Shown one piece after another: positions 7,787-58,275 of a stretch of DNA of 64,000 nt (positions within the stretch are counted from its first letter, which is position 1; each line of letters opens with the position of its first letter). The position numbers were made by a program, and so were the translations under genes. The stretch lies in the sequence record OZ346228.1, one strand, 5' to 3'. Origin of the DNA: a phage. The notes beneath the pieces are model-generated. The model searched no databases. It had not been told where the DNA came from and saw only the letters and a list, made by a program, of their open reading frames with translations.

Positions 7787-8251
7787 ATGCTAAAGGTTAA
7801 ATGTCAAACAAGGTTCAACCTAAAGCGTTTAGATCGCTTCTACAAAGAACTTGTGAGACTTGAAAGTAAAACAATAACCTACGGCTTTTATGACGAACCT
7901 CACCCGTCAGGCTTAAATATGGCAACATTGGCAGCCATTCACAACTTCGGTTGGAACGGGCTGCCTGTTCGCAATTTCATGGAGACAGCTTTTGCATTTC
8001 ACAGCACTCAACTACAGACCTTGACAGAAAAATTGTTGAGAGCTATGGCTAGAGGATCAAGTGCAGAGGCTATTCTTAAGCAGATGGGGGACACAGGGGC
8101 CAAAGCTATCCAGTTTGTTATTGAGGCTGGTCAGTTTAGTAACCCTACTGTTAGTGAGCAGTGGGCACAAGAGAAGGGCTTCAACGAGGCTATGCGGCAT
8201 TACGATGTGCTGCTGGAATCTGCAACCTTTAAAATTGGACAGCAAAAATAA
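7787..8251 (+). CDS. head-tail joining protein (hypothetical)
   Basis: ATG at 7787 preceded by RBS GAGGG and promoter-like TTGCTT-17-TGgTAAAAT. Confidence 0.35.
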   Translation: MLKVKCQTRFNLKRLDRFYKELVRLESKTITYGFYDEPHPSGLNMATLAAIHNFGWNGLPVRNFMETAFAFHSTQLQTLTEKLLRAMARGSSAEAILKQMGDTGAKAIQFVIEAGQFSNPTVSEQWAQEKGFNEAMRHYDVLLESATFKIGQQK

Positions 8252-12120: not shown

Positions 12121-14457
12121 ATGGCTACAAACAAAATAGTTGCCACAACAGTCAACAAGATTGGCTTTGAGATAGAGAACTCCTCCTACAAAAAAGCTGT
12201 AGAGAAAATTCGCAGTATTGGGAGGGAGTTCAGGAAACTAGGTGAGGATTTTAACTCAGCCAACCCCATGAGCAGATGGCAGGCGGTAGCTGTTAAAACC
12301 CAGCAGACAATGCAGCGGGTTGCCAGACAGCAATCTCAGGCAAATGCTAAGCTGCACAGGGAGAGCGTAGCACAGGCCAAGAAAGAGGCTGCAGTAAGAG
12401 CTGCAATAGAACGTAGGGAGAATGCGAGACGTAAACAAGCTGTAGGTAATCTTACCGCTAAAAATCCAGAAATGGCTAGGATGCGTAAGTTCTACCAGCA
12501 GCAAGCTAAAGAGGCCAAAAAGGCTGCCAAATCTGCACCAGTGTCTTACGGCGGTTATAAGCCACCTAAGGCAAGAGTTCTGGCTAATGCTAAAGCTTTC
12601 AAATATATCCCCAGTAACCCTAATATGGGTGGTGTGGCTTCCGACCCTAATCTTGTGAAAGCTCAGACAGCTGCTATGAATCGTTATCATAGACAGCTAA
12701 GAAGGGACGGTAAAGCTGGTATGGATAATAGGCTTATGTCGGATCGTGAGGCAAGAAGAACCCACCTCTACAACTCCGCGATAAGACTTTCTGCCAAGTA
12801 TGGTGCCGGATTCCGTGGAAGCTTGCCAGGATACTCAGAGTTAGAGTCCAGGTTTGCTCGCGGGGAGATGAAAAAGTCAACCTTTAACGCCCACCTGTCA
12901 GCGCTGCAGTCTGGATTTAAAAGTGCCACCAGCCAAACGCTTACACTAGGCGATGCCATGAGAGACTTACGTAGATCTGTTATTAATGCAACAGCTGCGT
13001 ATACAGCTTTTTCTGGATTTGCTGCGGTTAACAGATCCGGTCACATGATGGAGGGGGCAAGTGCTGCTCTTACTGCTGTTACTGGAGATCCAAACAAAGC
13101 CAACAGTGAGGTTGCGTTTGTCCAGCAAGAGGCTATGCGTCTTGGTTTTGATCTCAAATCTGGTCTTCAAGGTTACGCCCAGATGTCGGTAAACGCCAAA
13201 AACCAGATGACAAATCAGGAAGTGCATGAGTTGTTTTCTGCATACTCCCAGTATGCTGCTGCTTATGGTGCCGATGAGGTAAAATACCAGCGCGGTATTA
13301 TGGCAATCCAACAGATGCTCGGTAAAGGGCAAGTAATGTCCGAAGAACTGAAGCAACAACTTGCTGAAGCATTGCCTGGTGCATACGAACCTTTTATCAA
13401 GGCCACCAAAGAGGCTTTTGGTCTTTCTGAACTCTCCATGGATCAGTTCATGGACATGATGAAGAAAGGTGAGGTTAAAACAGCCAAGATCATGAAGTAT
13501 GTGGCTAAGTACATGAACGAGGCATCTGCAGCTGGTTATGAAAGAATGCAGAAGTCTAACGTGCTGGCAGAAAACAGACTGAAAACCTTCATCGAACTGA
13601 CTCGTCAGAAACTGTTCACCCGTTGGTCTGACGAACTAACAGAGTTCTATTATACACTAATCCGCACTGGTGAGACTCTGCAATTTGTGTGGGATGCCTC
13701 TGGTGATTTTGTTAGCGGGTTTGTGAGAGGCCTTAACTGGGTAGTTGGCGAACTAAACAACACTATAGTCAAGATCCGCATGTTTTTCCTTGAATGGGGG
13801 ATTAAATGGGGATTCATAACAGCTAAGACGAAGGAATATTCTGAAGAGCTTCATGACACCTTTAGCTATGCTAAATGGGCAGGGTTTGCTGCTGCCATCA
13901 TGCTGGTAGTCAATGCCCTAACAAAAGGTTTTGTCATGGCATCCATGCTTGTAAAAACCTTTAAATTCCTTAACTCTTTAAGGGGTGCAGCTGGAGCAGC
14001 GGGTGCCGCTACTACAGAAGGATCTGGTGGTGGAGCTCCGGCAGGAAAAGGTGGGGGTGGCCTCAAGACACCTGGTGGCAAAGTTGGTCTGCTCGGTAAG
14101 CTGGGCATTATCGGTACAATACTAAGCGCTGGGGAATTATTTAATGACCGTTACAACCCACTAAGTGAAAGAAATCAGCAGCTGGATACTATCAGCGATA
14201 TGATTCGCAAAGATATCATATCGGGAGGTAGCGGATTTGTTAATCCTTTGGACACCTTACCGGGCGGGACTCTTCCGTTGCCAGGTGGCCCTGGTTTTGC
14301 TTCTCAATTAAGAACTATGGAAATGCTACCTTTAGAGATCAGTGATGGGAAAATCACGATTTCAATAGATGAGGGTGAGTTTAACAAAATATTTGATGCA
14401 AAACTTGAGTGGGAGAACAATAAAGATATCAACTTCATGTCTACCGACCTTTGGTAA
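12121..14457 (+). CDS. tail tape measure protein
   Basis: 778 aa, helical and Ala/Gln/Lys-rich with Gly-rich segment GAAGAAGAATTEGSGGGAPAGKGGGG; follows chaperone pair. Confidence 0.8.
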   Translation: MATNKIVATTVNKIGFEIENSSYKKAVEKIRSIGREFRKLGEDFNSANPMSRWQAVAVKTQQTMQRVARQQSQANAKLHRESVAQAKKEAAVRAAIERRENARRKQAVGNLTAKNPEMARMRKFYQQQAKEAKKAAKSAPVSYGGYKPPKARVLANAKAFKYIPSNPNMGGVASDPNLVKAQTAAMNRYHRQLRRDGKAGMDNRLMSDREARRTHLYNSAIRLSAKYGAGFRGSLPGYSELESRFARGEMKKSTFNAHLSALQSGFKSATSQTLTLGDAMRDLRRSVINATAAYTAFSGFAAVNRSGHMMEGASAALTAVTGDPNKANSEVAFVQQEAMRLGFDLKSGLQGYAQMSVNAKNQMTNQEVHELFSAYSQYAAAYGADEVKYQRGIMAIQQMLGKGQVMSEELKQQLAEALPGAYEPFIKATKEAFGLSELSMDQFMDMMKKGEVKTAKIMKYVAKYMNEASAAGYERMQKSNVLAENRLKTFIELTRQKLFTRWSDELTEFYYTLIRTGETLQFVWDASGDFVSGFVRGLNWVVGELNNTIVKIRMFFLEWGIKWGFITAKTKEYSEELHDTFSYAKWAGFAAAIMLVVNALTKGFVMASMLVKTFKFLNSLRGAAGAAGAATTEGSGGGAPAGKGGGGLKTPGGKVGLLGKLGIIGTILSAGELFNDRYNPLSERNQQLDTISDMIRKDIISGGSGFVNPLDTLPGGTLPLPGGPGFASQLRTMEMLPLEISDGKITISIDEGEFNKIFDAKLEWENNKDINFMSTDLW

Positions 14458-18258: not shown

Positions 18259-18927
18259 ATGGCTGTAGCTTATCCTACAATACCAATTCCAGATCTTGAA
18301 GATGCAGAAACAGTCCTGAGTGATGACTTCTTGGTTGTCAACCAGACTGATGGGACAAGAAAGGCTAAGATTGACGATGTTGTCAACGATCTTAGTATTA
18401 CTAAGATAGTCTATTTCACAGAGGGTGGTTATCTTAAGAGCAAGAAGGACTTTGCTTATGACCCAGAGACTAAGCGCTACTACACGTGGAACGGGGATTA
18501 TCCTAAAATAATCCTCCCAGACTCCACCGTAGAGGGTGCTGGGGGCGTGTCTGCAAATGCCTGGTCTGTTTTTGGTGAGCTTGCTGCAACTTCTTCTGGC
18601 AGAATAGTTGATTACGGATCTATCGGTGGTCAGCTTGATATGGATCTTGAAGTTGCGGATACCTTTAAGGTTCGACTAACTTCAAATACCACAATCTCTT
18701 TTGAAAATCAAACAGAAGGTCTTGAAGGGGTGGCGAGAACTATAACCGTATGCATTACTCAGACCTCTGGCGGCAACAAAGTCTATTGGCCTGGTAATGT
18801 TAAATGGTCCTACGGAAGAGATCCTATCCTAACATTTACAGCTGGTGCAACAGATATTTTCAAGTTGGAAACCTACGACAACGGGTTAACTTGGTACGGG
18901 GCACTGATTATCGCAGGAGCTATCTAA
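18259..18927 (+). CDS. receptor-binding protein anchor-domain protein (putative)
   Basis: 222 aa; N-terminal region is paralogous to N-terminus of 21562..22713 (DD.LVV.Q.D.TR.KI.DVV ... EGG.L ... FAY). Confidence 0.45.
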   Translation: MAVAYPTIPIPDLEDAETVLSDDFLVVNQTDGTRKAKIDDVVNDLSITKIVYFTEGGYLKSKKDFAYDPETKRYYTWNGDYPKIILPDSTVEGAGGVSANAWSVFGELAATSSGRIVDYGSIGGQLDMDLEVADTFKVRLTSNTTISFENQTEGLEGVARTITVCITQTSGGNKVYWPGNVKWSYGRDPILTFTAGATDIFKLETYDNGLTWYGALIIAGAI

Positions 18928-18928
18928 G

Positions 18929-21526
18929 ATGCGTATTCAACATAACATTGATAACGTATTTCAGATGATTGAGGGGCACAGGAAGTGCCTCGATAACAAC
19001 ACAGGTATTACCAACACCTCTACACAAAATAAGCTAGTAAACCCTGATGGTCTTATAGCTGCAGGGTGGGCAGGTAATAAGATAAATAATGATTGGGCAA
19101 TGCATGAGTCCCAAGCTGTGTTGATTCTGGGATACATTGAAGCATATAGGGCATCGAAAAGCGATTTCTATCTGGATAGGGCAAAAGATGCTTGGGAAGC
19201 TTACAATAGTCATCTTCTGGGTACATATGCAGTAGAAAGTAAAATGCAAAGATTGTCCCACTACCCTCTATCCACAGATGGGGTTCCATCACATGGTGGG
19301 TTTAAAGATGTGGTGGTGTCTTTTACCAACGGTAGAGGAAAAATCCCAGCTGGATCTCCGACATGGGGGGAATACCTTGACAAGGCATTCCAAGCGTATA
19401 ACGGTGTGTTAGGAAGAAACACTGTAGACTCTGATGTTTACGGTGGCACAGATGCTAACCCAGATTGGACAACATCCGGATTAAGTTGGTGGGTTGAGTG
19501 GTACATAGCATGGGATGGTAACCGCTATTGGGCTAACGGTAGCATAGCCGACAGTGGTCATACGTCTGTAGAGTTCGGCACAATCCAATTACAAGATAAG
19601 GGTGTTACAGGCAGCCACAAGGTAACCTATTGTGTAAGATTACCTCAAGAGCAGGGCGGATCGGTGATACCTGCTGGATCCCCTGTAATTGTAAATCCTA
19701 TAAACGTGGTTGCAGATAATCAGGCCCCAGAGTTGGACGGGGAAGAAATGTGGTGTGACGCTTGTTATCAACTCTACACCTTGACAGGTGAGGAAAAGTA
19801 TTACACCGCATTTAAACAGTCTTACAACAAGTTGCTTAATTTCAGTGATATAAACGCCTACGACAAGCTGTTTAGAAAGACCACGTTGATTAAGGCACCG
19901 TTTACAGACGGTACTTGTCTTGTTGCAGGAACAGTTCCTGTCATGAGCAGAGACAGTGACGGGTATATCAACTTTAGAATGAACGCACGCCAGCCTTGCG
20001 AAATAATTCAAAAAGGGACTACATACAAAATAGGCAGAGATGCTGAAATTGTTATGAATTTCGGAGGAGAAGGGGTTCTGTTCCAGCCACATTTCATCCT
20101 TAATGATGGCAACAATAACAAAAAACAGTACAGGATAGGGGTTCCTTTTGGAGGGGCAGAGGTAACAGAAATAGTTGCCAAGGTTACTGATTTCGTAGAG
20201 GTAGTTGGTAAAGACGGTAATCCGTACCTTTTACCTAAAGAGGAAAACATTGCCGTGAGCGGTGGTGCCAGTGTTAGTATGCAGTACGCTACTGACATTT
20301 ACAACCACTCTGACAACTTCACCCGTTGTAATATAGCAAGAGGCAAAGTAACTTTCAATTTTGGAAGAGAGATTTCTTTAAACTCAGTAACTTATCGATC
20401 AGATGATGAGATGGTAAGGGTCAAATTTCTTGACAAAGACAGGTGGTTATGGTATGCTGATCTATATGCCACTAATGGACAATGGATAACAGAAACTCTT
20501 ACTCTAGGAGATTTCAAACTAGATCCGACACAACCTCATCACACTGAAGAAGAGATTAAACCTTTCTTTGCTAATCCTAAGGGACTCACCTCTGTAGATT
20601 TCACCCTAAGCGACAGGCAGATAGGTAATGGCTTGTTTGATCTATATTGCGTCAACACACTGCCGCAATTCTATATTGCAGATAGGGATGCTTATCTAAT
20701 CTGGTTTAGCGTATGGATGGCAAGCAAGACAGAATCAACCGCTAAGGTTGGTGATTGCTATGTCAGAAACTACAAGCAAGGTGCATACAGGCACACACCA
20801 GGTGTGTTCCCTGCCGGAAAGGTGATAGATAAGGAAAACTATCTCTTAGAGGAAAGGCCAAATTGGCCCTACCCAGGCATGCAATACCCAGCAGTCTACT
20901 GCATGGGTGCAGAAAACATAGATCGCCATAGATTGTCAAATACAATAGGCTTTCTGTATGACGCTCAAGTCTGGTATAATAATACATTTAAGACAGAGGG
21001 TCCAGTTGCCTCACGTTATGTATGGCAGAGAGGTAATGAAGGGTTGACTGGTTGGTGGGAGATGGTAGATAACTCTAAGCTCCAGTCAAGATCTTTTGTT
21101 GCTGCGTGCCGCACAATATATGAGCTCAAGAAACATAAAGAACCTGTTGATGAAAGACTGTTCCTGTTCTGCCAGAAATGGGCATGGTTCCTCAACAGAT
21201 TCCAGTCATCTCATTCAGGAAATCTGCCTACAGACTTTAACACCTCTGGGGGATACTCTTATCAAGACAGAGGGGACAGGATGTGGGTGGTAGGTGAATG
21301 GCTTGCAGGTTGCTGCTGGCTAGGTCTGTGCGGGTATTCAGAGACAATACCCCAAATAGATATTGTTGTAGAAGCCTGTGTGAAGCTACTGCAAAAGCAC
21401 CACTTCATTAATGGGGATAATGTTTTAAACGGCTGCTGGGCAGTTTCTGATCCGGTAGGCTATCACTCTGGCGAAATCCTTCGCGGTCTGGGCCTCTATG
21501 CTCAATACCGTGGATTGTACCTTTAA
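18929..21526 (+). CDS. tail spike-like protein with putative polysaccharide-degrading domain
   Basis: 865 aa; Trp/Tyr-rich with alpha/alpha-barrel-like glycoside hydrolase flavour; start 2 nt after stop of anchor-domain gene. Confidence 0.4.
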   Translation: MRIQHNIDNVFQMIEGHRKCLDNNTGITNTSTQNKLVNPDGLIAAGWAGNKINNDWAMHESQAVLILGYIEAYRASKSDFYLDRAKDAWEAYNSHLLGTYAVESKMQRLSHYPLSTDGVPSHGGFKDVVVSFTNGRGKIPAGSPTWGEYLDKAFQAYNGVLGRNTVDSDVYGGTDANPDWTTSGLSWWVEWYIAWDGNRYWANGSIADSGHTSVEFGTIQLQDKGVTGSHKVTYCVRLPQEQGGSVIPAGSPVIVNPINVVADNQAPELDGEEMWCDACYQLYTLTGEEKYYTAFKQSYNKLLNFSDINAYDKLFRKTTLIKAPFTDGTCLVAGTVPVMSRDSDGYINFRMNARQPCEIIQKGTTYKIGRDAEIVMNFGGEGVLFQPHFILNDGNNNKKQYRIGVPFGGAEVTEIVAKVTDFVEVVGKDGNPYLLPKEENIAVSGGASVSMQYATDIYNHSDNFTRCNIARGKVTFNFGREISLNSVTYRSDDEMVRVKFLDKDRWLWYADLYATNGQWITETLTLGDFKLDPTQPHHTEEEIKPFFANPKGLTSVDFTLSDRQIGNGLFDLYCVNTLPQFYIADRDAYLIWFSVWMASKTESTAKVGDCYVRNYKQGAYRHTPGVFPAGKVIDKENYLLEERPNWPYPGMQYPAVYCMGAENIDRHRLSNTIGFLYDAQVWYNNTFKTEGPVASRYVWQRGNEGLTGWWEMVDNSKLQSRSFVAACRTIYELKKHKEPVDERLFLFCQKWAWFLNRFQSSHSGNLPTDFNTSGGYSYQDRGDRMWVVGEWLAGCCWLGLCGYSETIPQIDIVVEACVKLLQKHHFINGDNVLNGCWAVSDPVGYHSGEILRGLGLYAQYRGLYL

Positions 21527-21530
21527 CATA

Positions 21531-21550
21531 GGGGGCTGTTTGCCCCCTTT
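21531..21550 (+). terminator. weak hairpin (possible attenuator)
   Basis: GGGGGC-TGTTT-GCCCCC followed by only TTT. Confidence 0.3.
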
Positions 21551-21561
21551 CAGGAGAAAGA

Positions 21562-22713
21562 ATGGCTGATATTAAAGTTGTCAGAATTGAATCTCTTCCT
21601 GCCACTACCGCAGTGACAGAGGATGATTACCTGGTTGTTCAACAACCAGACCTGACCCGTCGTGTAAAAATTGGCGATGTTGTCCATGTTGATGGGACTG
21701 TTTCTCATGTAATCTCCTTTAAGGAAGGTGGTAAGTTAAACGGCCCAATGGATTTTGCCTACTTCGAAGAGGAAGACCTCTACCTGCGTTGGAAAGGCGA
21801 ATTTCCACACACTGTTCCTGCACTGTCTTCACCGTACTCCGATGGTGGGATTACTGACGCTGCATGGATGGTATATACTGACCCGTCCTTAAGGGAGGAG
21901 CTGGAATCTACCATTGGCGCATCTATGATCATGACAGCCGAAGGGCAGTCTGTCCAGGATGTAATGGATGTTACTGTTCAGACAGCTAACGATGCCAAAG
22001 CACTTGCACAGCGTGTAGATTTTGGTACAGTGCACACTGTAGGCGATGTTATTCACCTTGATAACTTTGTTGGCCCTGCAGTTATTGAAGAGGGAAGAAC
22101 TACCAACTACCCTTCTGTAGCAGCTGGTGAAAAATTTCTGAACGGTGTGGTATCTCGTCGTGATACTACAACTGTTGATGGTATTTTCCGTGGCGCTACC
22201 ACCGGAGCCATGTACACCATTGCAGTAACCAACGGTGTAGCAACAACGAAAAGAATAGCACTTCGTGATGAATTTAAACGCCTAGAGGCAAACAACCCAA
22301 CAAGAACAGTTATCCGTGCTGGAGATGATTTAAATACGGCAGGGTACTTGCAGCTTGATGCAACAGGCCGTTGGGGTATGTGGAACCAACAAACAGCTTC
22401 GTGGCAACCTCTTGCTATAGAGCAAGGCGGCACAGGGGCTACAACTTTAGCATATGCTCAGAATCTGTTCAAAGTTCCTATAGCAGCAGGTGTAAAAGAC
22501 TTCTTAACACTGCCAAGAACTGCAGGAATGGAAGATGGGAAATACTACCCAATCATCGTTAGAACAGATCCGTATTACGCCCCTTCGACAGGTACAGATA
22601 TTACTATAGTCACCAGGTCTTCATCTGGAAATGACCCTATGAACTGTGCCACCCTGCAGTGTCACTATAGAACTGGCGGCTGGACGGGCAGGGGGACTCT
22701 TTCTACGGGGTAG
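21562..22713 (+). CDS. tail fibre/spike protein with shared N-terminal anchor domain
   Basis: 383 aa; N-terminus paralogous to 18259..18927; RBS CAGGAG. Confidence 0.45.
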   Translation: MADIKVVRIESLPATTAVTEDDYLVVQQPDLTRRVKIGDVVHVDGTVSHVISFKEGGKLNGPMDFAYFEEEDLYLRWKGEFPHTVPALSSPYSDGGITDAAWMVYTDPSLREELESTIGASMIMTAEGQSVQDVMDVTVQTANDAKALAQRVDFGTVHTVGDVIHLDNFVGPAVIEEGRTTNYPSVAAGEKFLNGVVSRRDTTTVDGIFRGATTGAMYTIAVTNGVATTKRIALRDEFKRLEANNPTRTVIRAGDDLNTAGYLQLDATGRWGMWNQQTASWQPLAIEQGGTGATTLAYAQNLFKVPIAAGVKDFLTLPRTAGMEDGKYYPIIVRTDPYYAPSTGTDITIVTRSSSGNDPMNCATLQCHYRTGGWTGRGTLSTG

Positions 22714-22748
22714 TAAATTTCTACCAGAATGAAAAAGCACTTCTTGGG

Positions 22749-25157
22749 ATGGTTGCTCCAACAAGGGGTAAACAAGAGTATGTTGCTTTCTATGCAGAGG
22801 CTCGTGCTTTCCCTGTCAGCATATACGCAAGTAGAAATGTTGTCGAAGTGTTTACCAGAGAGCAAGATTATCAAGTCGGCTCTGTAACAAACAATCAGAA
22901 TGGGGTTAAGTTCGTTGCACCTCTTCAATCAGCAGATTTGAATCTTGCTATTCTTGGATATAACAACACCAATACCAGACCTATTGTTGACTTCAAAGGT
23001 ACTTCAGGATTCTACACTGGTGGCGGCACACAGTGGCACTATATAGGTTCTGCTGAACGCTATGCTGTGATGAGCAAAATGAATATGCCAAAAGTCGAGC
23101 TATGGGCAGACGGTCTTGACTATTTGTGCTACGGCAGTCCTAGAAAGGCGTTATTCTCTAATGCAGGATTCCAGTGTGCATCCGATGGGACAGAGGATCT
23201 GACTAACGGTACGTTTACCTCTAAATGCGGTAATGGTGCTGGTCTCAAAGGTCAGGCAGAGTTCAGATCTACTCCGGAAGCGGGTCAAGTTATTGTTCGC
23301 GATGTTGTAGGCACAGCTCATAGATTCTACAACTTCAACAAGGATGGTACTTTCTCAGCACCAGGTGGTTTTGTATGCCACACAGGTGCAGACTGGAACA
23401 ACCAGTTCGGGAATAACAACCCTTCTAAAATAATGGCAGGCAATGTCAACGGACCTGAAGGATCGATGGTTGTTGGTGGGTTGTCTGTGGCATTTTCTGG
23501 AAACTACGCTTTCCAGATGGCAGGTCGTTTAGATCAGCTGTACACTCGTTCCATAGAGCAGGGAAACCACAGAGCGTGGAACAAAGTTATTCAGCACCGT
23601 GGTCAAGGGTTGGGAACTAATGACCTTAACGACTACAAGGCAGATCGTGAAGGGATTTACCATCAAGAGGCAAATGCCAACGCCACAGCGGAAAGAAATT
23701 ACCCACCAGGGCAGCAGATGGCTGGTACGCTGATCGTTCTTAGGAACTCCGCTAACGAAGGAACAGGTTGTATCCAGATATATAAAATGTATCTTGGTGG
23801 AACATGGGAAAGGTATTACAATAACCTTGGCAGCGGAATGGCTTGGAGCCCTTGGAAGAGAACAAGCTTCCCAGAAAACACCACCGCTCCAGGTATGCCT
23901 GACTTGTGGTTGCCTTTAACCTCTAACCTAAAACCTGCACTGGGTGAAGGTGAGATGGTCTTCTCCAGACCTTCTACAGCAACCTATTTCACTAAGCGTG
24001 GTGTTATGGCTGTTGCACAAGCAAACCAACCACGTTTTGAAAGAGATGGTCTGCTTATTGAAGGGCGAAGGACAAACCTAATGCTTAACAGTGAAGACCC
24101 TAGTAAATGGGGAGCCAGTCAACTGATTACTGTTGGTGGTACTGTGACAAACACCAACGGCACAAAAGGTGCAAGATTTACAGTAAACACTGCATCCGGT
24201 GTGGAAACAACAGCGTTAAACCTTGCTACAGTTCCAGCCACCAGAGGTGCCGATGTAACAGGTGCTGAGAAATTCTGTACTGGGTCTATTATTGCAAGGG
24301 GAGGTAAAGCGAACCAGAGATTACGTATAAGATTCGACATGTACGACGGATCCACCACAACATTTCAAGGTGATGCTTATGTTAACCTGTCAACACTTGA
24401 AGTTAAAACAACAGGTGTTGCAGCGGGGAGAATTAAAGTAAAAGCTGAGAGATGGCAAACAGCCGGACCTGCTTGGATAAGGGTTGTTGCTACGTTTGAG
24501 GCAGTGTCCTCTGACAGGAATATCGGTTGCCAGTTCCAGATTGCCCCGCCGGAGAGTTCTCAACATGCCGTAGGGGATTGGGTTGACGTTGCAATACCTC
24601 AGTTTGAGTTGGGATCTTGTGAGTCCTCGTTTATCCCTACAGGGTCTTCACCTGTAACCAGGGCGGCAGATCTTTGTAAATTCCCAATGACGGATAACCT
24701 AGCGCCCAGACCATTCACTATCGCCGCTACGGTTGATGCCAACTGGAGAGGCTGGGGCAAAGCTCCTAACGCAGCCCCTAGGGTTATTGATACAGAGGGT
24801 CATCAATCCGGTGCTGCATTTATCATGGGGTTTGGCTCTGCAACAAATATTGCGGAGGACGGTCATCCATACTGTGATATTGGAGGGTCAAACAGACGTG
24901 TTTACGAGATGGCTAAAGCCCGTAAATTGAAAATTGGGTTCAGGATAAAAGATGACGGTAAAACCTGCTCTTTTGCTAACGGACTGGTGAGCACGGAAAC
25001 GCAGTCTTCTTGGGAATTCCTAGCAGGAGGCGCTTTCATCCGCATTGGTGGTCAAACGGCGACAGGTGAAAGACACTTATTTGGTCATATTAAGGACATA
25101 AGAGTTTGGAACTCTGCACTGACAGACACCCAGCTTATGATGGAGAGTGTTGAATAA
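22749..25157 (+). CDS. tail fibre protein with knob-like and lectin (LamG-like) C-terminal domain (putative)
   Basis: 802 aa; Gly/Asn/Thr-rich fibre-like composition; C-terminal motif HLFGHIKDIRVWNSALTDTQL resembles concanavalin-like lectin domains. Confidence 0.45.
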   Translation: MVAPTRGKQEYVAFYAEARAFPVSIYASRNVVEVFTREQDYQVGSVTNNQNGVKFVAPLQSADLNLAILGYNNTNTRPIVDFKGTSGFYTGGGTQWHYIGSAERYAVMSKMNMPKVELWADGLDYLCYGSPRKALFSNAGFQCASDGTEDLTNGTFTSKCGNGAGLKGQAEFRSTPEAGQVIVRDVVGTAHRFYNFNKDGTFSAPGGFVCHTGADWNNQFGNNNPSKIMAGNVNGPEGSMVVGGLSVAFSGNYAFQMAGRLDQLYTRSIEQGNHRAWNKVIQHRGQGLGTNDLNDYKADREGIYHQEANANATAERNYPPGQQMAGTLIVLRNSANEGTGCIQIYKMYLGGTWERYYNNLGSGMAWSPWKRTSFPENTTAPGMPDLWLPLTSNLKPALGEGEMVFSRPSTATYFTKRGVMAVAQANQPRFERDGLLIEGRRTNLMLNSEDPSKWGASQLITVGGTVTNTNGTKGARFTVNTASGVETTALNLATVPATRGADVTGAEKFCTGSIIARGGKANQRLRIRFDMYDGSTTTFQGDAYVNLSTLEVKTTGVAAGRIKVKAERWQTAGPAWIRVVATFEAVSSDRNIGCQFQIAPPESSQHAVGDWVDVAIPQFELGSCESSFIPTGSSPVTRAADLCKFPMTDNLAPRPFTIAATVDANWRGWGKAPNAAPRVIDTEGHQSGAAFIMGFGSATNIAEDGHPYCDIGGSNRRVYEMAKARKLKIGFRIKDDGKTCSFANGLVSTETQSSWEFLAGGAFIRIGGQTATGERHLFGHIKDIRVWNSALTDTQLMMESVE

Positions 25158-25489
25158 TGAATACTTTTACCCTTGGGTTTACTGACAGGGAGGATTTTAA
25201 CGGTTTCATGGACGAAATCGGCTTTTACGAGAATGAGGTGTTGCAAAACACCCTTCTTGTAGAGGTTGTCGGGTTCATTTACACAGAGACTGGAGACACT
25301 TATGAGGCCGAAGATGAATTTGGCAACATGGTTGTCTACCCGGTTTGCGAGAAAAGTGAATTGTTTTATGTTAACGTTCTGGCTCTGGACGAGGATGCAG
25401 AAAACATCGTCTCTAAAAGCGGAAAAGTTGTAGATCCGATAAGGTTGAACATGTTCGACCCATCAGTATCCACCTTGGAAGCACTTTAA
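25157..25489 (+). CDS. hypothetical acidic protein (possible fibre chaperone)
   Basis: 110 aa, start overlaps upstream stop (TAATG); followed by terminator. Confidence 0.3.
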   Translation: MNTFTLGFTDREDFNGFMDEIGFYENEVLQNTLLVEVVGFIYTETGDTYEAEDEFGNMVVYPVCEKSELFYVNVLALDEDAENIVSKSGKVVDPIRLNMFDPSVSTLEAL

Positions 25490-25587: not shown

Positions 25588-26178
25588 ATGTTTTTATGGG
25601 AAAGGCCTAGATACCTTCCGGATATTAGATTGGAGCTGCTGGCAGATATTGTTACGTTTAAAAGTCCGTTTACAGGTAAAACGCAAAAAGTAACCTATGC
25701 CACACCTAATTGGAAAGGCACTTTGACAGTTTCCAATATCAGCGAGTCACAGTTGCTGGAGCTTAAGAGCTTTGTTGATCAGGTGTATAGAGATGGAAAC
25801 ATCTTTCTTATTAAAACTTACGGTCACTCAGTTACAGCTAATGAGCCAATCGCCCTTGGGCCTACTGGTAACGACGATTTTTTGAAGACGGTTGGGTGGG
25901 AGCCAAACAGAGACATAGCTAGAGCTGGGGATAAAATATCTGTCAATGATGAATTGAAAGTGGTAACAGCTCCAGTGCGTAGCGATGGTGTTGGGTCTGC
26001 TGTTATAAGCATATCTCCAAGACTTAGAAAACCTATTGCCGCAGGTGACACTATGAAGATAATAACTCAATCCCCGAAGGGTAGGTTTCATATCAGAGAT
26101 ATTTATAAAATTAAGCAAAAAGTCGATGCTATGCAAAAAGGTGATAATATAGTTATCAACTTCTTTGAGGATTTCTAA
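25588..26178 (+). CDS. tail tip/minor tail protein (hypothetical)
   Basis: 196 aa after promoter TTGCGT-17-TGgTAAAAT and RBS GGAGG; upstream of NlpC/P60 and J-like genes. Confidence 0.35.
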   Translation: MFLWERPRYLPDIRLELLADIVTFKSPFTGKTQKVTYATPNWKGTLTVSNISESQLLELKSFVDQVYRDGNIFLIKTYGHSVTANEPIALGPTGNDDFLKTVGWEPNRDIARAGDKISVNDELKVVTAPVRSDGVGSAVISISPRLRKPIAAGDTMKIITQSPKGRFHIRDIYKIKQKVDAMQKGDNIVINFFEDF

Positions 26179-26179
26179 G

Positions 26180-26731
26180 ATGATCAGAGCGCCATTAGAT
26201 AATTTATTTCTTGAAAAGCTGGAGCTTGATGGTGTTGAGATCTTAATTGCTGCAAAGCTGGAGCTACCGACAGGAACTGTCAGGGTGTGCTCAGGCACTG
26301 GTGTTGTAGTAATTGAGGGGCAACATTTTATAGGGATAGGTGGATCAGCAACGTTAACTGCTGTGTCTGAGAAAGATGCCACCAACTTCGGATCTGTGGT
26401 AGCGACATTGAACGGGTTTGATCCTAAGTATGTGGGTGATCTGCTAAAGACTGAGTATTCTGGTTGTCGTGCCACGTTGTACATTACCGCTATGGAGAAT
26501 GGTCTGCCTGTTACAACTAATGGCTTGTTTGACGGCCTTATAACAGATATGGCTATTCAGACAGGTGAGAATAGCGCTTTGTCCATATCCATCTCTTCCA
26601 TCTTTAACAGTTGGTTAAGAGGTTTTCCTTATCGGTACACGGAGGAAAGCCACAGCTCAAGAAACGATAATGACAGATTTTTTAAATATGTGGATCAGGT
26701 GGCGAGCCGCCCGATCATTTGGGAGGTTTAA
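26180..26731 (+). CDS. tail tip/minor tail protein (hypothetical)
   Basis: ATG 26180 two nt after upstream stop; lambda gpL-position relative to K-like and J-like genes. Confidence 0.35.
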   Translation: MIRAPLDNLFLEKLELDGVEILIAAKLELPTGTVRVCSGTGVVVIEGQHFIGIGGSATLTAVSEKDATNFGSVVATLNGFDPKYVGDLLKTEYSGCRATLYITAMENGLPVTTNGLFDGLITDMAIQTGENSALSISISSIFNSWLRGFPYRYTEESHSSRNDNDRFFKYVDQVASRPIIWEV

Positions 26732-27156
26732 TGAGCACACACCCTCGTTTAGTGGATTGGCAAGAAAGATTGTGGAAAGTGTTTGACGAAGAGGCCACCA
26801 TACCTTTTGAATGGGGATTCCACGATTGCTGCACCTTTGCAGCTAAGTGTGTTGATGCCCAATACGGAACAGATTTTCTTTCTAACTTCGAAGGAACGTA
26901 TAAAACAGAGTTGGAAAGCAAAAGATGGTGCATGCTCCGTTTCAAAACCACACACCTGCCTACTATTTTTGATCTCTTTATGACTCGACTAGATACTCCT
27001 AAACAGGTTCAGCGTGGCGATATTGTTATCTTCGAAGGTCTGAACGGGCTCACCGCTGGTGTGTTCTGGAACAACCAGATTTGGGCGAAAGGTGATAAAG
27101 GGGTCTTTATGTTCGACATGAAAGATTCTATAGTTGTTGATGTCTGGAGGTATTAA
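26731..27156 (+). CDS. NlpC/P60-family tail protein (lambda gpK-like)
   Basis: 141 aa; Cys-containing motif FHDCCTFAAKCVDAQYG resembling NlpC/P60 catalytic region; immediately upstream of J-like gene. Confidence 0.5.
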   Translation: MSTHPRLVDWQERLWKVFDEEATIPFEWGFHDCCTFAAKCVDAQYGTDFLSNFEGTYKTELESKRWCMLRFKTTHLPTIFDLFMTRLDTPKQVQRGDIVIFEGLNGLTAGVFWNNQIWAKGDKGVFMFDMKDSIVVDVWRY

Positions 27157-30100
27157 TGCCAATTGCAATGATTGATAACATCGTTGCTTCTGCAAGATCT
27201 TCAAGTTATGACTGGAACGCATCCAAGGCAGCTCTGGCTGACAGCCTGAACACTGTTACCACCAGAACTCTGGATAAGATTTTTGAGGGCAACAAATCTT
27301 ACAGAAGTCAGCAAGATAGACAAAAGCTTCTCAGATCTTCTGCTGCACCCTGCTCTGTAGTGTATGGGAAGACACGCACATCCGGATTGCTTGCGTTTTT
27401 GGAGCAGGATAGCGACAGAACTCTCCATTGTGCTATTGTTCTTGCCAATCACCCTCTGGAAGGTATAGAAGATATACTTATCGACGGTAATCCTATTTCC
27501 TCGTATGGAGATCTGGTATCGTGGGAGCTACATAACGACAGAAAAACATCTGATCCTTTCATGGGTACACACTGCCCATCATGGTCACCCGACATGATAG
27601 GTAGAGGGATCAGTTGGCTACGTGCCAGCTTCAGGTTTGACCCTAACAAGTTTCCTTTTGGGTTGCCAAACGTTACACTTGTCAAGGTTGGTAAAAAATG
27701 CTATGATCCTCGTATCAGTAAAGAGGTGTATACCAATAACGCGGCCTTGGTGATCCTAGACTATTTAAGAACGTACCTTAAATGTCCTGACGAAACCATT
27801 AACTGGGAGTCCTTCAAGGAGGCTGCCAACATATGCGACGAGGCGGTAAAAAACGCTGACGGAACCAGTGAGCGACGTTACACCATTAACGGTGAGTTTG
27901 ACATGGATGAGGCCCCAGCAAGCATTATGGCAGAAATGCTGAAAGCTTGTGGTGCAGATCTCAGCTATGTAGCTGGTAAGTATGGTTTGCTGGTTGGTGC
28001 ATACTATGGCCCGGCAACAATGACACTGAGTGAGGATTGTGTCTGTGGTGAGGTCAAGATCTATCCGGAAGCCTCATTTGACAAAAGATCCAACACAATA
28101 ACTGGCAGATTCACCAGTCCTACCAAAGGGTATTCTGAAACAGATTTTCCATCAGTGTTTGTCCCAGAGTGGATAGAGAAGGATGGAGAAAGAAAGATAA
28201 TCGATATAGACTATCGCTTTGTTACCAGTCCTTATCAAGCTCAGCGTGTTTCTGCAATCTTCCTAAGACGTGCCAGAGCTGGCAGGATTATTGAAGTCAC
28301 CTGCAATATGCGAGGTTTCAAATTTAAACCTGGTCGTTACGTTACAATGGACCTCCCAAGTATTGGTATAGTGGGCCAAGAAATGAGGGTTCTTGAATGG
28401 GAGTTCACCAAAAAGGGCGGTGTCAAGGTAAAACTTCGTCAAGATGCTAAAGAGTGGAATGATGCCACAGGGCAACTTCCGGATTCCGGCGATGTAGATA
28501 TTCCGATATCCCCGTCCGGTGTAGCTCAGCCGCAAAACTTCAGATACTCCGTTCTCCAAGCTGGGGAAGTAACTCACGGTGTTTTGGCTTGGGACAACGT
28601 TGGAACTTACGCTCAAAATATTGTGCAGGTAAGAAAGAACGGAGAGATTGTTTGGACAGCACAGACAGTTGAGCAGTTTGTCAAAGTAGAAGGCTTGACC
28701 AAAGGGTCATACACAGCAACCGTGGTTGCAACATCTTATAAAGGTGGTGTATCTCCGGAAGCATATTGTGAGTTCAACATTCAGGCACCTGAAGCTCCTG
28801 TTTCTGTGGAGGTTAAACAGGGATACTTTGCTATTACCCTGATCCCGCACAGCAGAGACTTGGCTAGTGTAAGCACCCAGTACGACTTTTGGACATCTGG
28901 GATGACAAGATTGCCAGATACCAGTGATGCAACCGTTACTTCAAAAGCCACTCGTATGGGTGTTGGTTCAACTTGGACATCTGAAGGTCTGCAGAACGAT
29001 AAGATTTATTACTGGTATATCAGGACAACAAATGCTTTTGGTTCATCTGCTTTTGTGGAGTGTGCAGCCCACTGTTACACATCCATAGAAGATCTTATGC
29101 CACAGATTGATGCTGAGTTCAAAAAGACAGAGACTTATAAAGAGCTTACCGCCAATCTTGATAATGCAGTCAAGGAAATGGATAAAAATGTTGGTGCAGT
29201 CAATGACCGTGTTACTAGCATTTTTGAAGAGCTTGGGGATACAATAGAGGGTGTTGTCAGAGAGACGACAGAAAAATTTACAGGGGTTAATGGAGAAATT
29301 TCTGCCCTTAACAGTAAGCTGGTAGCAGCTCAGCAATCATTTGACGATAAACTTGCAGCAGAGTCTGGTAGGCTTGGGTCACTAATCGAGACAACAAATA
29401 GATCAACCGTTGATCTTGTTAATCGTAAAACTCAAGCATTGAGTGAGCAAATAACTGCAACTCAAGGTACTCTGCGGGAAGAGTTGAAGAACACTGAGAG
29501 CAAACTTAACTCCTCTATTCAAGAAACCAACAAGGCAACAACAGATCTGCTAAATAAGACAACGGAAGCTATTAAGCAGGATCTGGTGGCAGCTACAGGG
29601 AAGATCACCAAGCTGGAAGATGATGTGCAGAAAGAGGTTGCCAATCTGCAAGCATCTATTCAAGAAACTAACAGTACAACAGTTGATCTTGTTAATAATA
29701 CAGCCACAGCGATCCGTCAAGAACTTACCTCTGCAAAACAAGAAATTGTTGACGAAATGGGTAATATTGATGAGCTCAGGGCTACAGTATCTAATACCTC
29801 TAAAGCTGTAACAACACTTGAGGGTAAAATAAATGCTCAGTGGGGAGCTAAGATTCAGGTAGACTCTGCAGGGAATAAGTATGTTGCAGGTATCCAGCTA
29901 GGCATGGAGGGGTCTGGAGGACAAGTTCAATCCTACTTCATGGTTAGTGCAAACAATTTTGCGGTATACAACCCTGGAAATGGAACAGCAACCCTTGCTT
30001 TCGCAATCAAGAACAACCAAGCGTTCTTGAAAGACGCTTTTATAGAGAATGGCACGATCTCCTCTGCCAAGATCGCACAAGAAATTTCGTCAAACAACTA

Positions 30101-30755
30101 CGATGGCAACGGGTACCATAAATACGGTTGGTACATTAACAAGAACGGGCACGCCCAATTTATGGATGTGTGGGTGAAAGGCAACATCAACGCCAGTTCT
30201 GGTAACTTCACAGGGGCAGTTAACGCCACCAGTGGTACCTTCCGTGGAGATGTTTATGCCAATAATGGTAACTTTAGGGGTACCATAGATGCAACTGGAG
30301 GTACCTTCCGTGGGCGTGTAGAAGCTTCTGTTATCCGTGCTAACCAGTTCGAAGGTGCAATAGTTGCACACAGAACCTACGGTGACTGTCCTCCAGTATA
30401 CAACTCGCAGCAGAGGGTTTGCCGTTGGAGGTGGAGATATGTGGACAACGTTTCAGGACAAGGTAAGAACGTAACATTCTTCTTTAAACTAAACGGAACA
30501 TTGTCTGGCTCCCAGCTTAACGTTTGGATAGCCGGACATCAAATCCTTGCAGGTAAGAAGTACGGAAACGACAACAACGGCATGTGTGCGGTAGGGATAA
30601 CTGGTCTAGGTGAACAAACTATAGACATTATTGTCGAGATTTACACACCGTGGTCAACGTCTAGCGTGACAGGTGTCACAATCTCCTGTCCCACTGTGAT
30701 CGTTAGTCGTTCTAACTCAAGCTTCCAGGGACCTTGGAACGAGTCTCACGACTAA
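27156..30755 (+). CDS. host specificity protein, lambda gpJ-like
   Basis: 1199 aa; segments APEAPVSVEV.QGYFAITLIPH..YDFW..YYWYIRTTNAFGSSAFVE and AGIQLGMEG..FMVSANNFAVYNPGNG match lambda J regions as recalled; internal coiled-coil repeats. Confidence 0.7.
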   Translation: MPIAMIDNIVASARSSSYDWNASKAALADSLNTVTTRTLDKIFEGNKSYRSQQDRQKLLRSSAAPCSVVYGKTRTSGLLAFLEQDSDRTLHCAIVLANHPLEGIEDILIDGNPISSYGDLVSWELHNDRKTSDPFMGTHCPSWSPDMIGRGISWLRASFRFDPNKFPFGLPNVTLVKVGKKCYDPRISKEVYTNNAALVILDYLRTYLKCPDETINWESFKEAANICDEAVKNADGTSERRYTINGEFDMDEAPASIMAEMLKACGADLSYVAGKYGLLVGAYYGPATMTLSEDCVCGEVKIYPEASFDKRSNTITGRFTSPTKGYSETDFPSVFVPEWIEKDGERKIIDIDYRFVTSPYQAQRVSAIFLRRARAGRIIEVTCNMRGFKFKPGRYVTMDLPSIGIVGQEMRVLEWEFTKKGGVKVKLRQDAKEWNDATGQLPDSGDVDIPISPSGVAQPQNFRYSVLQAGEVTHGVLAWDNVGTYAQNIVQVRKNGEIVWTAQTVEQFVKVEGLTKGSYTATVVATSYKGGVSPEAYCEFNIQAPEAPVSVEVKQGYFAITLIPHSRDLASVSTQYDFWTSGMTRLPDTSDATVTSKATRMGVGSTWTSEGLQNDKIYYWYIRTTNAFGSSAFVECAAHCYTSIEDLMPQIDAEFKKTETYKELTANLDNAVKEMDKNVGAVNDRVTSIFEELGDTIEGVVRETTEKFTGVNGEISALNSKLVAAQQSFDDKLAAESGRLGSLIETTNRSTVDLVNRKTQALSEQITATQGTLREELKNTESKLNSSIQETNKATTDLLNKTTEAIKQDLVAATGKITKLEDDVQKEVANLQASIQETNSTTVDLVNNTATAIRQELTSAKQEIVDEMGNIDELRATVSNTSKAVTTLEGKINAQWGAKIQVDSAGNKYVAGIQLGMEGSGGQVQSYFMVSANNFAVYNPGNGTATLAFAIKNNQAFLKDAFIENGTISSAKIAQEISSNNYDGNGYHKYGWYINKNGHAQFMDVWVKGNINASSGNFTGAVNATSGTFRGDVYANNGNFRGTIDATGGTFRGRVEASVIRANQFEGAIVAHRTYGDCPPVYNSQQRVCRWRWRYVDNVSGQGKNVTFFFKLNGTLSGSQLNVWIAGHQILAGKKYGNDNNGMCAVGITGLGEQTIDIIVEIYTPWSTSSVTGVTISCPTVIVSRSNSSFQGPWNESHD
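29385..29790 (+). repeat. three imperfect tandem repeats (about 132-141 bp) within J-like gene
   Basis: Repeated protein unit IQETN[KS].T.DL[LV]N..T.AI+Q[DE]L at about 44-47 aa spacing; DNA units begin near 29385, 29517 and 29657. Confidence 0.6.
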
Positions 30756-57232: not shown

Positions 57233-57733
57233 GTGAAAATTAAGATCTTTGCTATTATTTTGAGCGCACTTTTATCGCTGCCTGTTGTTGCAGCACCAAA
57301 ACAAAAAGTATATCATACTTGCAAGCCCTCAGATACTAAGGAAAACATTCTGGCATGCAATATCTACAGGGAGGCTAGAGGGGATGGCACGATGGGTATG
57401 CTGGCATCAGGGTTTGCCACACTAAACAGGAAATCTCACCCCAAATACCCAGACACTATAAGAAAGATTGTCTACCAACCTAACCAGTTTTCGTGGACAA
57501 ACCACGGCAAAACTTTTAAGGTGACAGAAAAAGATTCATGGGATCACGCTAAAAGTCTTGCAAAGATGCTTCTAAAGGTCTATAATAACAACCATGTTGC
57601 ATACATGGCTATGGACATAACAGGTGGAGCAACACACTACCATACAACCAAAGTACGACCGAAATGGGCAAAAAAGATGCAGAGGACAGCTCAATTCGGG
57701 AGTCATATCTACTACAAGGAGCGCAATAAATGA
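57233..57733 (+). CDS. SleB/CwlJ-family cell wall hydrolase with signal peptide (candidate endolysin)
   Basis: 166 aa, GTG start; N-terminal signal-like MKIKIFAIILSALLSLPVVAAP; motifs NIYREARGDG, LNRKSHPKYPDTIRKIVYQPNQFSW. Confidence 0.7.
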   Translation: MKIKIFAIILSALLSLPVVAAPKQKVYHTCKPSDTKENILACNIYREARGDGTMGMLASGFATLNRKSHPKYPDTIRKIVYQPNQFSWTNHGKTFKVTEKDSWDHAKSLAKMLLKVYNNNHVAYMAMDITGGATHYHTTKVRPKWAKKMQRTAQFGSHIYYKERNK

Positions 57734-58275
57734 TTGTAAACAGTAATGAAACTAAAGCAGTACTAACCGGAAATATGGAGGTCACCAGGGGCTCAATTTC
57801 TCTGAACAAAGAGACTTTTGGGCTAATCATTAAAGGGATTTACGAAGATAAGGTGCTGGCAAGCTGCCGTGAACCAATCTTCAATGCTGTGGACTCCCAT
57901 GTTGAGTCTGGACGGGGTGATGTACCGATCATCATTCACTCTCCTACAGACCTTGAACCATACTTCTTTGTGCAGGACGTTGGATTGGGCATGTCGGAAG
58001 AGATGGTCCGCAACACTTTCATGAACCTCGGGGAGTCAACCAAGCGCAACAGCAACGCTCTGGTAGGTAATAAAGGTGTAGGTTCAAAGGCCCCGTTCAG
58101 CATGGTGGACACTTTCGATGTGATCAGTGTGCCATACCAACACAACAGTGCTAAGTGCCGTGCATGCCGCTACGAAATAGTAGCAGCACCGGAATCACGC
58201 AAAGATGGCGATCCGATTGAATACGTAGTTGACCGTGATGGTAACATCATCGACATTATCTACGAGGAGGCGTAA
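57730..58275 (+). CDS. GHKL-type ATPase-like domain protein (putative)
   Basis: 181 aa; Bergerat-fold-like motifs EPIFNAVD (N box), DVGLGM (G1 box), GNKGVGSKA (G2 box). Confidence 0.4.
   Translation: MIVNSNETKAVLTGNMEVTRGSISLNKETFGLIIKGIYEDKVLASCREPIFNAVDSHVESGRGDVPIIIHSPTDLEPYFFVQDVGLGMSEEMVRNTFMNLGESTKRNSNALVGNKGVGSKAPFSMVDTFDVISVPYQHNSAKCRACRYEIVAAPESRKDGDPIEYVVDRDGNIIDIIYEEA

Follow-up and report, generated by a model that had tools for sequence, protein, structure and literature searches.

A putative adaptor gene, a barrel-protein gene and one frameshifted fibre gene at the lateral tail fibre locus of a Vequintavirus

Phage sequence record OZ346228.1 includes a stretch of 64,000 nucleotides (nt; hereafter the window, 64 kb) in which four open reading frames (ORFs) follow one another on the plus strand, at 18259..18927, 18929..21526, 21562..22713 and 22749..25157. 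All four are indeed there as an earlier note on this DNA had listed them. That note, made from the letters alone, saw in them two receptor-binding modules that share an N-terminal anchor, each module consisting of an anchor gene followed by a large effector gene. The question raised by this locus is whether there are really two such pairs, and which of the four ORFs are genes in their own right. Our analysis of the region (18259-25157, a 6899-base query) indicates that it is the proximal part of the lateral tail fibre cluster of a Vequintavirus myophage, and that it holds three structural genes, not four. The explanation that accounts best for the whole region, and that we hold to be highly probable, is a small adaptor gene, a gene for a large barrel protein and one fibre gene put out of frame by a single missing base. 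The earlier observation is thus confirmed in part, and the interpretation that was placed on it is supported in part.

The region belongs to a well-populated group. Its nucleotide sequence shares 96-99% identity with those of over 100 sequenced Vequintavirus (rV5-like) coliphages. The closest matches are nimi and CarlMeissner/Bas48, both V. murica, and FFH2 also falls within the 96-99% range. The top matches all span 7743 bases against the 6899 bases of the query and align as two pieces. In these relatives, the genes for the tape measure, tube initiator, hub, central spike and sheath initiator are followed by a locus annotated as tail fibre. By orthology and synteny, the region corresponds to the rV5 gp43-gp42-gp41 lateral tail fibre locus, directly downstream of the hub, spike and sheath-initiator genes. 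The same genes occur in the same order in rV5 (gp43, gp42, gp41) and in LL12 (gp42, gp41), and the sizes of 222 and 865 amino acids (aa) are identical. In one respect the window departs from the locus as it is known in Vequintaviruses: the fibre is not one uninterrupted ORF, since a 1-nt deletion at 22694/22695 splits the gene. All three rV5 products (gp41, gp42 and gp43) were detected in virions by mass spectrometry (PMC3606486), and nearly the whole of rV5 gp42 aligns with phi92 gp141 (PMC7229145). Descriptions of the locus and its proteins already exist for rV5, LL12 and phi92, and the window adds a nearly identical member to a known species.

One fibre gene and a missing base

The second pair of ORFs makes up a single lateral tail fibre gene (21562..25157, plus strand) at the position of rV5 gp41. 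In CarlMeissner and nimi, the equivalent DNA is one coding sequence (CDS) of 4440 nt that encodes 1479 aa, and in phage S127 BCL3 the fibre gene is intact at 3597 nt and 1198 aa. When the window is aligned pairwise with its relatives, it lacks one A between 22694 and 22695, which turns GGGGAGACT into GGGGGACT. At the site itself (22691..22695), GGGGAGAC has become GGGGGAC, with a run of five Gs left by the loss of the A, in alignments with CarlMeissner, S127 BCL3 and two further sequences, L008 and L009. Repair of this one base gives a stop-free ORF of 1198 aa, whose product matches the S127 BCL3 fibre from end to end at 96% identity. In all 40 phage records listed, the aligned piece across the frameshift site exceeds the window query by one base, and seven of eight public contigs carry the fibre as one ORF, the exception being the Logan assembly L008. 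Compared with its Vequintavirus relatives, the window has a rare allele of the fibre, the short one of 1198 aa, with a unique 1-nt deletion in it.

The two ORFs are what this deletion leaves behind. The 5′ fragment (21562..22713, 383 aa) contains the anchor peptide, a Tail_spike_N domain and the proximal shaft, and ends six codons after the deletion. The 3′ fragment (22749..25157, 802 aa) contains the distal shaft and the receptor-binding part. The earlier note had pointed to a short -1 frame overlap (22671..22713) and left open that the pair is translated as one protein. The part of this idea that stands is that there is one gene. The overlap is simply what is read out of frame from the deletion up to the first stop codon. 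At the protein level, GWTGRGDSFYGVVNFYQNEK is a peptide of a read-through product or of an intact fibre, while ...GWTGRGTLSTG is the C-terminus of the truncated stub.

Whether the base was lost from the phage or only from the record is a separate matter. Judging from the sequence alone, we lean slightly toward a real mutation, but regard an isolated sequencing or assembly error, with the real phage carrying an intact 1198-aa fibre, as a serious contender. The lesion is one base beside a run of Gs, and neither of the exact products of 383 aa and 802 aa is on record in the public gene index. Moreover, L008 (SRR30938632; 13315..13358) has an indel of its own, an additional G in a run of four located 70 nt downstream (window ~22766-22769), so that the long allele is read there as two ORFs, of 684 and 809 aa. 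This different indel suggests that calls of this kind occur in automated assemblies. The L008 frameshift could in turn mean that a dispensable fibre is inactivated repeatedly, or it could be an error of assembly.

An error confined to this one base would, however, have to have arisen in an otherwise clean sequence. We compared indels between the window (positions 1-62811, 62.8 kb) and CarlMeissner, and no other unbalanced indel of 1-2 nt lies within the body of a CDS. The remaining indels lie between genes, compensate one another in pairs where the sequences diverge, shift a stop codon by two codons, or keep the frame. A single unbalanced coding indel in 62.8 kb argues that the assembly is not error-prone, and this census rules out poor sequence quality in general as the cause. 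The base that was lost is also an A, and the change does not alter the length of a homopolymer. In addition, the same genome holds a second real-looking lesion in an accessory gene, a deletion that fuses rIIA with rIIB. A scan for the 29-mer that spans the junction found no match in viral (IMG/VR), metagenome and genome collections. These negatives carry little weight, since the intact control was also negative in IMG/VR, which has only four related loci, and the other two collections had no control.

Two of the differences from CarlMeissner deserve a description of their own. The rIIA-rIIB fusion is in-frame (window 57730..58275, with the junction at ~58120-58132), and ~2.65 kb of CarlMeissner, most of rIIA and rIIB, is absent. 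The resulting ORF of 181 aa joins rIIA residues 1 to ~134 to the last ~47 residues of rIIB across an imperfect microhomology (DVISV/DVVSV). Among 120 related phage records, not one has this junction in one piece, and the arrangement is reminiscent of T4 r1589. The other difference, at window position 8243, consists of a T-to-C change together with one A fewer at the stop of the bas48_0011 homologue. It lengthens the protein by two residues (QK) and is harmless.

The small protein and its barrel partner

The first pair is a different case, and comparison across phages identifies it as a genuine two-gene module. Its first gene (18259..18927, plus strand), an orthologue of rV5 gp43, has an AAGGAG Shine-Dalgarno sequence and encodes 222 aa, comprising an anchor peptide, a Tail_spike_N domain and a conserved C-terminal domain of ~110 aa (18583..18924). 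In the public gene index, 1307 blocks list a copy that is 100% identical. The C-terminal domain belongs to no Pfam family and has no sequence match in the PDB. It is recognised by its homology to the corresponding proteins of eight other phages. The second gene (18929..21526, plus strand) encodes the large tail protein of 865 aa, the orthologue of rV5 gp42 and phi92 gp141.

To see how constant this pairing is, the gene directly upstream of the 865-aa homologue was inspected in nine lineages, that is, in the window and in eight distant phages. These were phAPEC8 (Stephanstirmvirinae), the jumbo myophages SPN3US and BF17, Erwinia vEam_S_24 (Ounavirinae), Salmonella vB_SE1_KM, Yersinia phiR8-01 (Autographiviridae), and Cronobacter GAP52 and Vibrio Vp_R1 (Grimontviridae). 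Salmonella vB_SE1_KM has a genome of 52 kb, and its tail genes (major tail protein and tape measure) point to a siphophage. A gene with the C-terminal domain lies directly upstream of the barrel gene in nine of the nine lineages, across myo-, sipho- and podophages. In all eight distant phages, the upstream partner has 156-269 aa and ends in this domain (BLASTP E 1e-28 to 5e-16). A hidden Markov model (HMM) of the domain, built with four of the surveyed loci left out, gave E-values of 4e-50 to 3e-18 and a single match per locus, always in the adjacent ORF. The separation of anchor and enzyme-like subunits that had been proposed for this pair is supported by a conserved gene order.

The other end of the small protein varies with the lineage. 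The phAPEC8 partner, gp098, bears only the anchor peptide of ~40 aa, and the N-terminus of g043 in Yersinia phiR8-01 is the T7 tail-fibre N-domain PF03906 (E=5.6e-9). In phiR8-01, g043 and the barrel gene occupy the tail fibre gene position, and no further tail fibre gene is annotated in the stretch examined. A lineage-specific attachment end combined with a constant partner end is the pattern expected of an adaptor. The N-terminus of the window protein (the ~45-aa peptide and Tail_spike_N) would then fix it to the baseplate, and we infer that the ~110-aa C-terminal domain holds the 865-aa barrel protein. The predicted model of the adaptor monomer was poor. We found no fusion of the two proteins: most of the 92 representative homologues of the 865-aa protein begin at the same N-terminus, and the N-terminal extensions of three others (P0029, P0040 and P0034) have no match to the 222-aa protein.

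A rival view takes the 222-aa protein for an independent short spike, or for a merely co-encoded, non-structural assembly factor, and not for an adaptor of its neighbour. The C-terminal domain also ends other small "tail fiber" PHROG families and one long fibre family. It is further found in P0067, a metagenomic protein of 293 aa whose first ~195 residues are of the 865-aa type and are joined to an adaptor-type C-terminal domain, the only such combination found. These occurrences suggest that it may be a generic distal or tip domain, and the chimera suggests that adaptor and barrel modules recombine in nature. Nevertheless, we judge this alternative unlikely. The small gene and the barrel gene are strictly adjacent in nine of nine very different phages, rV5 gp43 is a virion protein, and in phiR8-01 it is the small protein that bears the tail-attachment domain, without which the barrel protein would have no other way onto the particle.

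Turning to the barrel protein itself, the predicted structure is an (alpha/alpha)6-barrel of the six-hairpin type, a fold resembling that of glycoside hydrolases (GHs), which is split by beta-sandwich insertions. Among known enzymes, the six-hairpin (alpha/alpha)6 glycosidases of families GH8, GH88, GH105 and GH76 align with it over ~310 residues at just 9-14% identity, and unlike these, the barrel of the window protein is interrupted by two large beta-sandwich insertions. It has 92 homologues among 1.8 billion cluster representatives and is present in 525 phage records. Acidic residues are conserved at E60, D270 and E272, which stand at helix starts in the model's secondary-structure listing, and at D502 and E849. 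A review lists phi92 gp141 as a "glycosidase" (PMC5380687), and the BASEL annotation of the barrel gene reads "glycosidase domains". A number of points count against an outright enzymatic assignment. The sequence falls in no curated GH family, with no Pfam, NCBIfam or PDB sequence match, and profile searches returned only short matches, to cellobiose 2-epimerase at E~1e-3 and to GH76 at E 0.01-0.05. The (alpha/alpha)6 barrels also include epimerases, lyases and cyclases, and the conserved residues are no more than candidates for a catalytic role. The "glycoside-hydrolase-like character" ascribed to this protein in the earlier note consequently holds at the level of the fold and of the labels given to phi92 gp141 and in the BASEL annotation, and does not extend to membership in a curated family. 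With this qualification, the 865-aa protein is probably a glycoside-hydrolase-like subunit that binds or cleaves surface polysaccharide.

Beyond the "glycosidase" label for phi92 gp141, the literature that we searched has no description of this coupling, and its occurrence across morphotypes may be new. A recent study by cryo-electron microscopy (2026) described a "fiber II" of phi92 that is attached at the base of fiber I, without assigning a gene to it (PMC13450770). An adaptor that shares its anchor with the fiber I protein would fit an adaptor-barrel complex as fiber II. It is possible, although we put this forward only tentatively, that the adaptor and the (alpha/alpha)6-barrel form a portable two-component appendage of myo-, sipho- and podophages, with an N-terminus that is swapped to suit the virion, and that this appendage is fiber II in the rV5/phi92 group.

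The shared anchor and the reading of the second pair

The N-termini of the 222-aa protein and of the fibre are paralogous, as the earlier note had proposed from a shared motif. BLASTP aligns them over 99 aa with 38% identity and 55% positives (E=5e-19). Both also pass Pfam PF18668 (Tail_spike_N), which has a gathering cut-off of 25 bits. In the 222-aa protein, the anchor peptide occupies aa 1-45 (18259..18393, identified by BLASTP and by an HMM of the peptide), and Tail_spike_N follows at aa 51-105 (18409..18573; 41 bits, E=2.1e-10). In the fibre, Tail_spike_N covers aa 46-103 (21697-21870, plus strand; 42.5 bits). In a PDB sequence search, both anchors match the N-terminal regions of solved tailspikes, CBA120 TSP1/3/4 and G7C gp63.1. 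An HMM made from the two N-termini found no third copy of the anchor in six-frame translations of the 64-kb window.

The same arrangement exists outside the Vequintaviruses. The HMM of the N-terminal peptide matches only four proteins (E 1e-27, 4e-27, 3e-24 and 5e-6), which are the adaptor, the fibre and two proteins of phAPEC8, the adaptor gp098 and the endosialidase spike gp095. The latter two have the N-terminal peptide in common, and gp095 stands at the position of gp143 in the gp140-gp141-gp143 series of phi92. Thus, phAPEC8 keeps the order of small adaptor, barrel protein and spike with shared N-terminal peptide, with a deacetylase fibre gene located between the barrel gene and the spike gene. 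Two receptor-binding units with a common N-terminal anchor are therefore found in the window and in phAPEC8, and by these sequence comparisons anchor sharing is a feature of the rV5/phi92 group. By this pattern, the docking site of the adaptor-enzyme unit is probably of the same kind as that of the variable fibre or spike.

Mounting several receptor-binding proteins through conserved N-terminal modules is likewise known from CBA120 (TSP1-4), from G7C (gp63.1 and gp66) and from the anchor-branch receptor-binding proteins of Klebsiella phages. PF18668 itself was defined on TSP1 and gp66 and is present in both window proteins. The comparison has limits. T4 gp10-like docking domains, which mark complexes of the CBA120/G7C type, went undetected when the baseplate proteins next to the locus were compared with Pfam. 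A further difference is that one branch of the window consists of a separate small adaptor and a subunit that is not a beta-helix but an (alpha/alpha)6-barrel.

The first pair, then, is organised as anchor and effector genes, and two ORFs do occur in the second. Could the second pair be built in the same way, with the 383-aa and 802-aa products as distinct subunits? We find this very improbable. The DNA is one ORF in relatives, and the split is traced to one missing base. The 802-aa ORF begins at an internal methionine codon, and the sequence before 22749 (cacttcttggg ATG) contains no Shine-Dalgarno sequence, whereas true gene starts nearby have AGGAG-type sites. Moreover, both fragments match one PHROG fibre family, phrog_6578, in consecutive ranges of the profile. 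An anchor followed by a large effector gene thus describes the first pair correctly, but does not describe the second. Least credible of all is a regulated fusion of the two ORFs, by programmed -1 ribosomal frameshifting or by transcriptional slippage at the five Gs, that would yield both a stub and a full fibre: -1 is the correct direction, a tRNA-Gly in the P site could re-pair from GGG to GGG on AGG-GGG-A, and the product (...GWTGRGDSFY...) would be almost the ancestral sequence, but there is no X-XXY-YYZ heptamer in the zero frame (codons ACG GGC AGG GGG ACT), five Gs are generally too few for efficient slippage, the G5 run is absent in relatives and was created by the deletion itself, and none of the 40 listed relatives has the two-frame arrangement, those whose annotation was inspected having a single ORF.

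Fibre alleles and the meaning of the lesion

One frameshifted fibre gene thus remains the preferred reading of the second pair, and this gene differs from that of its closest relatives in more than the missing base. The window lacks an in-frame segment of 843 nt (281 aa) that is part of the common 1479-aa allele. The breakpoint is a hinge motif, W-x-P-L...GGTGA (22401..22439, plus strand), where the BLAST pieces overlap. The window protein has one copy of this motif, at aa 289, and the long allele has two, at aa 289 and 570 (12143-12181 and 12986-13024 of L001). The additional 281-aa module holds a distant paralogue (~29% identity) of a domain further down the fibre. Only one of 120 related records, that of S127 BCL3, contains the junction of the short allele in one piece, and its intact short form indicates that this allele is natural but rare.

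Across alleles, identity is ~91% in fibre residues 1-329 and 83-97% in the middle part. Alleles have exchanged the C-terminus: an endosialidase-chaperone (Peptidase_S74) module closes those of the rV5 type (1266-1270 aa), as in rV5 gp41, while the window fibre ends in a module of the gene transfer agent (GTA) spike type. This module contains the GTA head-spike-fibre domain NF048003 (24054..24668, plus strand; NCBIfam E=2.3e-21, 77.1 bits against a cut-off of 36), and a homologue profile of the C-terminus matches the RcGTA head spike fibre 6tb9 (E=7e-14). The last 400 aa have 913 homologues, ~49% identical, in the side or lateral fibres of T1-, lambda- and T5-like coliphages and in prophages. 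In the window, this kind of distal module has been attached to a myophage fibre that bears Tail_spike_N as its anchor. By homology, the C-terminus is a horizontally mobile receptor-binding module. For the "lectin-like C-terminus" described earlier, we found a match to Laminin_G_3 (PF13385), possibly a ConA-like segment, at the extreme C-terminus (24975..25133, plus strand; E=0.002). This match lies below the cut-off (18.6 versus 27.6 bits) and covers only positions 97-149 of the 151 in the model. A lectin-like end is accordingly plausible but not established, and the solid assignment is the GTA head-spike-fibre domain.

A small ORF of 110 aa (25157..25489, plus strand; PHROG 1361) follows the fibre gene. 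By tblastn, homologues are located at, or overlap, the ends of side or lateral fibre genes in lambda-like, ~50-kb and T5-like phages, including Bas32, and a homologous small ORF likewise follows the fibre gene in T1-, lambda- and T5-like phages. It is absent downstream of the Peptidase_S74-type (rV5-type) allele. Because it travels with this C-terminus and is missing after Peptidase_S74, the ORF is probably a fibre assembly or accessory factor.

Two observations on the surroundings of the locus can be added. Further downstream, genes for a distal-tail-protein-like protein and a DUF6950 protein (window 25588..27156) precede a gene for a lambda gpJ-like protein (27156..30755; Phage_Tail_Tip and Ig_J domains), which lies inside the baseplate cluster of this contractile-tailed phage and which relatives list as an FN3-containing lateral tail fibre. 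In addition, each search returned 16-23 "Campylobacter phage" records (18 in one; e.g., MG065635 and MG065654) that are ~96-100% identical to E. coli rV5-like phages. Matches of this kind suggest mislabelled hosts or contaminating coliphages in that data set.

As for the part that the fibre plays, it begins with the adaptor's anchor, and we propose that it uses the same kind of docking site. The GTA-spike-fibre domain and the C-terminal beta domain would form its far end, with the small accessory ORF downstream. As written, the gene would encode an anchored stub of 383 aa, and no separate ribosome-binding site would serve the 802 aa of the receptor-binding part. Should the deletion be real, particles would thus carry at most this stub, without the receptor-binding end of this fibre. 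Vequintaviruses infect K-12 through a conserved deacetylase fibre that targets ECA/NGR and through short fibres that bind the core of lipopolysaccharide (PMC8594841; bioRxiv 10.64898/2026.04.02.716166). On hosts of the K-12 type, a mutant in the lateral fibre should consequently remain able to grow. The variable fibres presumably serve other hosts, and the deletion mutant would therefore be viable.

There is a likely parallel in lambda PaPa, a laboratory strain in which, as Hendrix and Duda reportedly described in 1992, the side fibre gene stf is split by a single-base frameshift (orf401/orf314). There, a dispensable side-fibre gene is likewise present as two ORFs owing to one missing base, the N-terminal fragment keeping the virion anchor and the C-terminal fragment the receptor-binding part. 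The phage family and the fibre are different ones, and the lesion in the window may be neither a real event nor one of laboratory passage.

The locus itself offers little new biology, and the frameshift is either a trivial lesion or an error. In annotation, 21562..25157 should be joined as one frameshifted or pseudogenised fibre gene. For those who would use this phage in host-range studies or therapy, the presence of the fibre matters and is worth verifying. What may be of wider interest is the coupling of adaptor and barrel protein, which would provide a concrete candidate for fiber II in phi92-like phages and a defined pair of proteins for the study of polysaccharide degradation.

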